Of a stretch of 64,000 nt of DNA, positions 13,180-14,882 are shown one piece after another; position 1 is the stretch's first letter; each line of letters starts with the position of its first letter. The DNA lies in assembly GCF_003334405.1 (NCBI RefSeq), contig NZ_QOWM01000002.1; one strand, given 5' to 3'. Source of the stretch: Escherichia coli (GTDB lineage Bacteria; Pseudomonadota; Gammaproteobacteria; Enterobacterales; Enterobacteriaceae). Below the pieces are notes generated by a model. That model saw nothing but the letters and a program-made list of their open reading frames with translations, was not told the origin of the DNA and searched no databases. Made by a program: the position numbers and the translations under genes.

Positions 13180-13884
13180 TTATTTTTTAGAGTAATCACG
13201 CGCACCAAAAATTGCAGTGCCGATACGAACCATCGTGCTACCTGCCGCAATGGCGGCTTCCATATCGTCCGACATTCCCAGAGAGAGCGTGTCGATATGC
13301 GGGTAGCGCGTTTTCAGTCCGGCAAATGCTACAGCCATTTGGCGTGCAACTTCAAACTGCCTTACATATTCTGACTCAGGCGCAGGGATTGCCATCAACC
13401 CGCGCAGACGTAAACGCGGTAGTTCAGCGACCGCAGCTGCCAGCTCGTCCAGTTCAGCCAGTTGAATCCCGGACTTACTGTTTTCATCACTAATGTTAAT
13501 TTGAATCAGAACGTTAAGAGGGGGAAGTTCTGCCGGGCGCTGGTCGTTGAGACGGGTAGCGATGCGCAAACGGTCGATGGTATGACACCAGTCGAAATGC
13601 TCTGCCACCAGGCGGCTTTTATTAGACTGCAACGGGCCAATAAAATGCCATTCTAATCCTGTTACGCCCAGTTCCTGAAAGTGGCGAATTTTATCTACCC
13701 CTTCCTGAACGTAGTTTTCACCAAATTGACGCTGCCCGGCATCAATGGCTTCTGCGATGGCGCTCGCAGGTTTTGTTTTACTGACTGCAAGCAGCGTAAT
13801 TTCTTCTGGAGAACGGCCGCAACGCGTTGCAGCCGCTGAGATTTTGTCCCGGACCTGTGCCAGGTTATGCGCAATATCGTTCAT
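13180..13884 (-). CDS. yggS: PLP homeostasis protein YggS (COG0325)
   Basis: 234-aa ORF recognised as YggS; alanine-racemase-N-like fold. Confidence 0.9.
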   Translation of the reverse strand: MNDIAHNLAQVRDKISAAATRCGRSPEEITLLAVSKTKPASAIAEAIDAGQRQFGENYVQEGVDKIRHFQELGVTGLEWHFIGPLQSNKSRLVAEHFDWCHTIDRLRIATRLNDQRPAELPPLNVLIQINISDENSKSGIQLAELDELAAAVAELPRLRLRGLMAIPAPESEYVRQFEVARQMAVAFAGLKTRYPHIDTLSLGMSDDMEAAIAAGSTMVRIGTAIFGARDYSKK

Positions 13885-13901
13885 TTTCCGAGGATCTTAG
13901 T

Positions 13902-14882
13902 ATGAATATGGAAGAAATTGTGGCCCTTAGTGTAAAGCATAACGTCTCGGATCTACACCTGTGCAGCGCCTGGCCCGCACGATGGCGCATTCGCGGCAGA
14001 ATGGAAGCTGCGCCGTTTGATACGCCGGACGTCGAAGAGCTACTGCGGGAGTGGCTGGATGACGATCAGCGGGCAATATTGCTGGAGAATGGTCAGCTGG
14101 ATTTTGCCGTGTCGCTGGCGGAAAACCAGCGATTGCGTGGCAGCGCATTCGCGCAACGGCATGGCATTTCGCTGGCGTTACGGCTGTTACCTTCGCACTG
14201 CCCGCAGCTCGAACAGCTTGGCGCACCAACGGTATTGCCGGAATTACTCAAGAGCGAGAATGGCCTGATTCTGGTGACGGGGGCGACGGGGAGTGGCAAA
14301 TCTACCACGCTGGCGGCGATGGTTGGCTATCTCAATCAACATGCCGATGCGCATATTCTGACGCTGGAAGATCCTGTTGAATATCTCTATGCCAGCCAGC
14401 GATGTTTGATCCAGCAGCGGGAAATTGGTTTGCACTGTATGACGTTCGCATCGGGATTGCGGGCCGCATTGCGGGAAGATCCTGATGTGATTTTGCTCGG
14501 AGAGCTGCGTGACAGCGAGACAATCCGTCTGGCACTGACGGCGGCAGAAACCGGGCATTTGGTGCTGGCAACATTACATACGCGTGGTGCCGCGCAGGCA
14601 GTTGAGCGACTGGTGGATTCATTTCCGGCGCAGGAAAAAGACCCCGTGCGTAATCAACTGGCAGGTAGTTTACGGGCAGTGCTGTCACAAAAGCTGGAAG
14701 TGGATAAACAGGAAGGACGCGTGGCGCTATTTGAATTGCTGATTAACACACCCGCGGTGGGGAATTTGATTCGCGAAGGGAAAACCCACCAGTTACCGCA
14801 TGTTATTCAAACCGGGCAGCAGGTGGGGATGATAACGTTTCAGCAGAGTTATCAGCACCGGGTGGGGGAAGGGCGTTTGTGA
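13902..14882 (+). CDS. yggR: PilT-like type IV pilus retraction ATPase paralog
   Basis: ORF 13827..14882; start trimmed to MNMEEIVALSVKHNV (326 aa); Walker A GATGSGKST; divergent from yggS across 17 bp. Confidence 0.85.
   Translation: MNMEEIVALSVKHNVSDLHLCSAWPARWRIRGRMEAAPFDTPDVEELLREWLDDDQRAILLENGQLDFAVSLAENQRLRGSAFAQRHGISLALRLLPSHCPQLEQLGAPTVLPELLKSENGLILVTGATGSGKSTTLAAMVGYLNQHADAHILTLEDPVEYLYASQRCLIQQREIGLHCMTFASGLRAALREDPDVILLGELRDSETIRLALTAAETGHLVLATLHTRGAAQAVERLVDSFPAQEKDPVRNQLAGSLRAVLSQKLEVDKQEGRVALFELLINTPAVGNLIREGKTHQLPHVIQTGQQVGMITFQQSYQHRVGEGRL

Follow-up and report, generated by a model that had tools for sequence, protein, structure and literature searches.

Two questions are raised by yggR, a gene of Escherichia coli predicted to encode a PilT-like motor: which pilus could such a protein serve when no other pilus gene is found nearby, and from where are yggR and its divergent neighbor yggS transcribed when their start codons almost touch? 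PilT is a hexameric ATPase responsible for the depolymerisation of type IVa pili. In the original prediction, made for the 64-kb window considered here (i.e., the whole stretch of E. coli DNA that was analyzed), yggR was described as an orphan encoding a retraction ATPase, and it was proposed that either the yggR and yggS promoters overlap or one of the two genes is transcribed from inside the other.

Several E. coli chromosomes were found to match the 2-kb region around yggR with 100% identity, while 8,001 bases of the window, aligned with K-12 MG1655 in reverse orientation, revealed a single mismatch. Window position x was accordingly converted to position 3,108,982 - x of NC_000913.3. The ORF list and the sequence agreed with the earlier placement of the yggR end at 14882 and with a start-to-start distance of 17 bp between yggR and yggS. 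The yggR start, previously given as 13884, was wrong by 18 nt, with position 13884 in fact being where the start codon of yggS begins. The coordinates of these and other features of the locus are listed in Table 1.

Table 1. Features of the yggS-yggR locus, numbered according to the window
Feature	Position	Strand	Description and basis
yggS (b2951)	13180..13884	-	PLP-homeostasis protein, 234 aa; heads the yggS-yggT-yggU-rdgB-hemW operon; ORF, TIGR00044 (347 bits)
Candidate CRP-S palindrome	13753..13768		Perfect palindrome TGCGATGGCGCTCGCA, core TGCGA-N6-TCGCA; yggS codons for P-A-S-A-I-A
Gap separating the yggS and yggR start codons	13885..13901		17 bp, TTTCCGAGGATCTTAGT; sequence
Shine-Dalgarno-like GAGGA	13890..13894	+	7 nt 5' of the yggR ATG; conserved in alignment; putative function
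yggR (b2950)	13902..14882	+	326 aa plus stop; ORF, TIGR01420, Pfam T2SSE, PDB PilT 3jvu, RefSeq
yggS-operon transcription start	13922	-	NC_000913.3 3,095,060; nucleotide 21 of the yggR ORF, opposite strand
yggS promoter, predicted hexamers	-10 TACACT 13934..13929; -35 TGTAGA 13957..13952	-	17-nt spacer; yggR codons 10-19
Walker A, GATGSGKST	14280..14306	+	Residues 127-135 (G127, K133); sequence, alignment
Walker B region, DPDVILLGELRD	14478..14513	+	Residues 193-204; alignment
His box, ETGHLVLATLHT	14547..14582	+	Residues 216-227; alignment
AVGNLIRE, variant of the PilT signature AIRNLIRE	14754..14777	+	Sequence, alignment
yggR-ruvX spacer (convergent genes)	14883..15065		183 bp, with palindromic units that we take, from their sequence and the REP consensus, to be REP-like; corresponds to the pilU slot of most other taxa

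The family to which YggR belongs was addressed by profile search. YggR matched NCBIfam model TIGR01420 (PilT/PilU family) with a score of 470.1 bits, relative to a cut-off of 319.1, across profile positions 1-328 of 343, and contains the Pfam domain T2SSE. By contrast, YggR scored far under every cut-off when the PilB, GspE, DotB, and VirB11 models were used. The matches to the PilB and GspE models spanned only the C-terminal halves of these models, with YggR (326 aa) lacking the N1 domain. YggR thus conforms to the two-domain organization of PilT and PilU proteins, taken here as about 330-370 aa and no PilB/GspE-type N1 domain. The best solved relative was Pseudomonas aeruginosa PilT (3jvu; E 5e-83; 282 bits), with residues 1-324 of YggR aligning with residues 1-327 of that protein. 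Alignment further revealed the Walker A, Walker B, and His-box columns of YggR to be invariant with those of Pseudomonas and Aquifex PilT, with the GxxGxGKS/T pattern of Walker A, the catalytic Glu of Walker B, and both His of the His box all being present. The variant signature AVGNLIRE matches AIRNLIRE at six of eight positions, with the glycine at the third position being fixed in all aligned enterobacterial orthologs, and some 15 residues found at the C-terminus of canonical PilT are absent. As such, the earlier description of yggR as encoding a complete PilT-family ATPase with an intact Walker A motif stands in terms of family and motif, yet calls for qualification in terms of completeness. 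Because the alignment with PilT begins at residue 1 and includes invariant N-terminal residues (E5, S16, D17, H19, L20, P25, R29, and G32), the annotated ATG is supported; a yggR start much further downstream would be implausible.

Activity of YggR has been considered previously. MG1655 yggR, termed pilT_Ec, was tested by a Vibrio cholerae pilus laboratory (preprint, bioRxiv 10.1101/2021.10.23.465551), where it fully complemented delta-pilT as well as delta-pilTU mutants for transformation and where the protein interacted with itself and with PilC. ATPase-inactive pilT_Ec did not support PilU-dependent retraction. That same study described the absence of pilU from E. coli, the AVG substitution, and the 15 missing residues, and reported that substitutions at the AIRNLIRE position are not the cause of the functional difference (bioRxiv 10.1101/2021.10.23.465551). 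The retraction activity of YggR in a heterologous host, namely, V. cholerae, is hence established by the literature; indeed, the identity of yggR, its assignment to the PilT family, the absence of a pilU partner, and the motor activity of the protein are all already published. In the literature searched, no E. coli experiment in which YggR retracted PpdD pili was found.

To place yggR in a wider genomic context, 80 diverse PilT loci, one genome per species, were compared. A divergent yggS was detected at most 340 bp upstream of pilT in 39 of the 80 loci, all bearing Gamma- or Betaproteobacterial names or coming from unclassified proteobacterial or bacterial MAGs. In 31 of these 39 yggS-linked loci, a pilU-like gene is found directly 3' of pilT. 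yggR holds the orthologous pilT position, that is, the first gene after the divergent yggS and upstream of pilU where pilU exists. No pilU was seen downstream of yggR in the Enterobacteriaceae loci examined, and in Salmonella, an unrelated IclR-like ORF occupies the yggR-ruvX slot. The homology-based gap between yggS and pilT measures 17-34 bp in Enterobacter, Psychromonas, Photorhabdus, Vibrio, and Pseudidiomarina and 40-340 bp elsewhere. In all seven Enterobacteriaceae considered (E. coli, Salmonella, three Citrobacter, Intestinirhabdus, and Enterobacter sp. Bisph1), it is exactly 17 bp. The first 11 nt of this gap (TTTCCGAGGAT), including the GAGGA motif, were identical in five of the six other loci; differences are noted at one base in Intestinirhabdus and throughout in Enterobacter sp. 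Bisph1. Among the Enterobacteriaceae loci, the remaining 6 nt vary. The head-to-head yggS/pilT arrangement is ancient, with the 17-bp gap having become fixed in Enterobacteriaceae.

These same comparisons bear on whether YggR could instead be a PilU-type accessory motor. The solved PilU structure 9n32 is a strong match to YggR (242 bits), and the NCBIfam name speaks only of a 'PilT/PilU family'. Still, this score is below that obtained with PilT, the gene sits in the yggS-adjacent pilT position, and at loci containing pilT-pilU pairs, YggR shares 45-50% identity with the product of the first gene, as compared to 33-41% with that of the second. Moreover, pilT_Ec alone restores transformation in V. 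cholerae delta-pilTU cells, something of which PilU is incapable. Assignment of YggR as PilU is thus extremely improbable and, given its closer relation to the first gene of such pairs than to the second, YggR is on the basis of sequence comparison a PilT and not a PilU.

The linkage of yggS and pilT has been previously remarked upon in plant pathogens (PMC8787154, PMC9605639), and could be thought to reflect a functional link, with YggR working together with the PLP-homeostasis/YggT module or being under its control, either instead of or beyond pilus retraction. Conservation of the pairing across Gamma- and Betaproteobacteria is in line with such a link, as is the phenotype of an Acidovorax citrulli yggS mutant, in which virulence was attenuated and both type III secretion and swimming motility were affected (PMC8787154, PMC9605639). 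On the other hand, no biochemical connection is known, and PilT proteins encoded at yggS-linked loci are described in the Pseudomonas and Vibrio literature as ordinary retraction motors. Interlocked divergent promoters, moreover, can keep two genes adjacent, with any rearrangement breaking both. A functional link is therefore deemed highly unlikely.

If YggR is a PilT, where are the other components of the pilus encoded? In the RefSeq annotation for an E. coli genome identical to the 64-kb window, which extends from speC to bglA, no pilin, secretin, platform, or assembly-ATPase gene is listed, confirming the earlier claim as to pilin, secretin, and assembly-ATPase genes. Nonetheless, MG1655 pilus loci are found outside the window, with ppdD-hofB-hofC at 114.5-117.5 kb and hofMNOPQ at 3,519-3,523 kb, such that the designation 'orphan' is apt within the window yet does not hold across the genome. 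According to a study surveying the type IV filament superfamily, type IVa pilus genes are usually scattered over multiple loci (PMC6668835). yggR is thus no orphan but a stand-alone pilT locus of the kind that is usual for type IVa pili encoded at several sites.

Transcription of the yggS operon, the extent of which was taken from SMRT-Cappable-seq, was considered next. The primary transcript covering yggS-yggT-yggU-rdgB-hemW (b2951-b2955) runs from 3,095,060 to 3,098,536 of NC_000913.3 (PMC6131387), with 242 reads at the 3,095,060 start on the forward strand (PMC6131387, supplementary files 3 and 4). As this start corresponds to nucleotide 21 of yggR, the proposal of transcription of one gene beginning within the other proved correct (SMRT-Cappable-seq, PMC6131387). 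The 38-nt leader thus given to yggS covers, in antisense, the Shine-Dalgarno sequence, the start codon, and codons 1-7 of yggR. Upstream of this transcription start, the minus strand reads TGTAGA-N17-TACACT-N6-C, from which the -35 and -10 hexamers were predicted. This block is shared without change by E. coli, Salmonella, three Citrobacter, and Intestinirhabdus, with near-identical versions found in Enterobacter and Photorhabdus, and across eight genera, from E. coli to Photorhabdus, it is nearly invariant. When positions 13500-15200 were scanned for consensus sigma-70 promoters, nothing was detected near the gap and no promoter was assigned to yggR or yggS; the yggS promoter was missed since its hexamers are weak sigma-70 matches.

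Sequence constraint on this region was assessed as synonymous conservation, defined as pairwise codon identity at degenerate codons encoding invariant amino acids across seven Enterobacteriaceae. In yggR, synonymous identity was 0.96 for codons 1-20, as opposed to 0.52 beyond codon 40, with the 5' window of yggR ranking first among 1,460 twenty-codon windows from eight neighboring genes. The corresponding values for yggS were 0.83 and 0.57. Among the control genes, values for codons 1-20 and for those beyond codon 40 were 0.89 and 0.65 for gshB, 0.86 and 0.56 for yqgE, 0.65 and 0.58 for yggT, and 0.54 and 0.53 for ruvX. Synonymous conservation at the 5' end was thus also raised in gshB and yqgE, being strongest in yggR. 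As such, the synonymous measure alone offers no proof of an embedded promoter. The predicted yggS promoter coincides with the peak of synonymous conservation. Together with the mapped start, these observations place the yggS-operon promoter within yggR codons 7-19, and it is the presence of this promoter that accounts for yggR codons 1-20 being so extremely conserved at synonymous positions.

Such a promoter could in itself explain why yggR has been retained, were the gene a cryptic relic encoding a protein that is foldable and active yet never expressed or used, and kept solely for the sake of the essential yggS-operon promoter in its first 20 or so codons. Several observations are consistent with this scenario. 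YggR is the fastest-evolving protein of the neighborhood, with amino acid identities of 72-82%, as compared to 84-97% for its neighbors, and yggR presents the highest dN; truncated forms of 290-313 aa are seen in Shigella as well as in certain E. coli; no yggR transcript was found among the SMRT-Cappable-seq entries listed; and K-12 makes PpdD pili only upon Sxy overexpression (PMC3330819). Promoter constraint, however, covers only some 60 nt, whereas yggR was detected in every one of 5,426 complete E. coli genomes, with the 981-nt ORF being intact in essentially all, and the length of 326 aa is constant across genera, being kept in Citrobacter, Salmonella, and Intestinirhabdus. Relative to six other Enterobacteriaceae, the dN/dS of full-length yggR is 0.08-0.12, although dS is saturated, and all catalytic motifs are invariant. 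yggR is under purifying selection. Moreover, the protein is a working motor and changes in yggR signal have been reported in microarray studies. That yggR is but a relic is therefore unlikely.

How yggR itself is transcribed was also addressed. No b2950 transcript appeared among the entries listed in those parts of the SMRT-Cappable-seq tables that were available (PMC6131387, supplementary files 3 and 4), suggesting that yggR may be expressed at only a very low level in the laboratory. Likewise, the available portions of the supplements to Ettwiller 2016 and Kim 2012 held no entry for the locus that would define a yggR start site, and a search by hand for a -10/-35 pair in positions 13780-13901 yielded only poor, non-conserved candidates. 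The yggR promoter must lie within yggS or the gap, firing toward the yggS promoter. With transcription of yggR and yggS converging in this manner, collision and antisense pairing would be expected to depress yggR expression.

One candidate for a regulatory site of yggR is the palindrome found within yggS, which contains a CRP-S core and is centered 141.5 bp upstream of the yggR ATG. In combination with a T-run, this palindrome was also considered as a plus-strand intrinsic terminator, although this was deemed to be a by-product of the YggS K-T-K-P-A-S-A-I-A codons. A perfect match to TGCGA-N6-TCGCA occurs once in the 64-kb window, while 16 of 100 window shuffles contained at least one such match. 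At -141.5, a perfect core is found in E. coli, Salmonella, Intestinirhabdus, and Enterobacter sp. Bisph1. In each of the three Citrobacter, the core contains one mismatch in TGCGA, this being a G-to-T change at the second base in two of them and a T-to-C change at the first base in C. koseri, while the core is absent from the Photorhabdus and Vibrio loci compared. As the core falls in conserved YggS codons, its conservation is inseparable from coding constraint. By way of reference, the accepted ppdD CRP-S site lies at -136.5 and contains two core mismatches. The regions flanking the yggS palindrome are GC-rich rather than A/T-rich, and reading of the sequence detected no -10 element at standard CRP spacing (-41.5, -61.5, etc.) from the candidate site. 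The original CRP-S survey addressed only orthologs of Haemophilus genes, with pilT not being among these, and no mention of yggR or pilT was found in the Sxy literature searched, to which the Sinha 2009 Sxy microarray study did not belong. It is thus quite doubtful that yggR is an unrecognized member of the Sxy/CRP-S competence regulon, controlled via a site in yggS codons 39-44 and gated by head-on interference from the constitutive yggS-operon transcript and by antisense pairing with it. Were this so, pili would be allowed to retract only once Sxy-CRP had overridden the housekeeping yggS promoter.

Taken together, it is very probable that yggR encodes the K-12 PilT ortholog of a dispersed type IVa pilus, positioned head-to-head with yggS and containing the embedded yggS promoter. 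YggR would act on the PpdD pilus, encoded by the distant ppdD-hofB-hofC and hofMNOPQ loci, with such retraction being presumed for E. coli. yggR would have kept its ancestral proteobacterial site opposite yggS, with the downstream pilU probably having been lost in Enterobacteriaceae and the head-to-head gap having shrunk to a fixed 17 bp, and it is as a result of such shrinking that the yggS-operon promoter would have come to lie inside yggR. From codons 7-19, this housekeeping promoter would fire leftward from nucleotide 21 of yggR. The yggR promoter would be located in or at the edge of yggS, such that the two transcription units would face each other and the 5' ends of the yggR and yggS RNAs would be complementary over the yggR ribosome-binding site. 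Transcription of yggS, or the leader RNA so produced, may thereby repress yggR expression.

In comparing YggR with characterized proteins, 46-48% identity is shared with P. aeruginosa PilT (3jvu) and V. cholerae PilT (VC0462), as are family, domain layout, co-linearity from residue 1, the same Walker A, Walker B, and His-box motifs, and a gene position divergent from yggS. In terms of ATPase-dependent retraction, YggR is interchangeable with V. cholerae PilT. In contrast to these two proteins, YggR lacks about 15 C-terminal residues, contains AVGNLIRE instead of AIRNLIRE, does not support PilU-dependent retraction when ATPase-inactive, is encoded with no pilU downstream, and evolves faster. 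The enterobacterial orthologs (Salmonella, Citrobacter, Klebsiella KPN_03384, and Enterobacter) resemble YggR more closely, being 326 aa in length and 71-83% identical, with their genes lying 17 bp from yggS and being flanked as in E. coli; for the K. pneumoniae ortholog, a published ortholog table gives 71.2% identity. Here, differences are only at the strain level, apart from the additional IclR-like ORF between yggR and ruvX in Salmonella. Finally, the locus recalls bacterial face-to-face divergent promoter pairs, in which a start site similarly lies inside the coding sequence of the divergent neighbor and RNA 5' ends are complementary. In the present case, only the yggS start is mapped and interference is presumed.

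What is added here to the published picture is descriptive only, namely, the ancient layout, the 17-bp gap fixed in Enterobacteriaceae, and the yggS promoter in the first codons of yggR. Nonetheless, the embedded yggS promoter predicts mutual interference of yggR and yggS. Polar effects on yggS-yggT-yggU-rdgB-hemW should be expected when the yggR 5' end is deleted or recoded, including by Keio-type deletions if these remove it; conversely, similar care is called for when altering the 5' end of yggS.

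In the yggS operon (yggS-yggT-yggU-rdgB-hemW), a second, internal start on the minus strand, corresponding to NC_000913.3 position 3,095,662, was reported by SMRT-Cappable-seq (PMC6131387), where the resulting yggT-yggU-rdgB-hemW transcript was marked 'novel'. Across seven Enterobacteriaceae, raised synonymous conservation (0.72-0.80) was noted at yggS codons about 171-195, a patch lying near this start. Elsewhere in yggS, the CRP-S-like palindrome together with the TTTTGTTTTA that follows was scored as intrinsic-terminator-like in the antisense direction, a score that is probably a by-product of the codons specifying S-K-T-K-P-A-S-A-I-A in YggS.

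When the 2-kb region around yggS and yggR was used as query against complete E. coli genomes, that of strain B2 (NZ_CP082327.1 768544-771321; match H1) was matched as two pieces, with an IS1 family transposase being annotated under this match. In some other strains (matches H9-H11), about 8% of the query was absent or split at the yggR-ruvX spacer, the palindromes of which we take to be REP-like. In most other proteobacteria, the slot held by this spacer in E. coli is occupied by pilU. The additional ORF found here in Salmonella is not a pilU remnant; its weak similarity (1.3e-11, under the cut-off) is to the IclR/PcaR-family model TIGR02431.

Features of the yggS-yggR-ruvX region (window coordinates unless a Salmonella locus, L083, or variant proteins, P00xx, are named)
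Feature	Position or identifier	Strand	Description
Internal start	13320	-	3' part of yggS; SMRT-Cappable-seq
Intrinsic-terminator-like site	13751-13780	+	CRP-S-like palindrome, then TTTTGTTTTA
Palindromic spacer yggR/ruvX	14883-15065		Palindromes in sequence
Additional ORF, Salmonella	L083 4113-4799		228 aa; between yggR and ruvX
Shortened YggR variants	P0008, P0009, P0012, P0013, P0016, P0021, P0022		290-313 aa

Comparison with six other Enterobacteriaceae revealed the dN of YggR (13902-14882) to be approximately twice that of every neighboring gene and the dS of yggR to also exceed that of every neighboring gene, high values that fit with yggR being expressed at a low level and less strongly constrained. 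Certain E. coli, along with Shigella flexneri and S. boydii, carry the shortened forms of YggR, one of which (306 aa) comprises 299 member sequences. Their existence suggests that YggR undergoes occasional lineage-specific decay.
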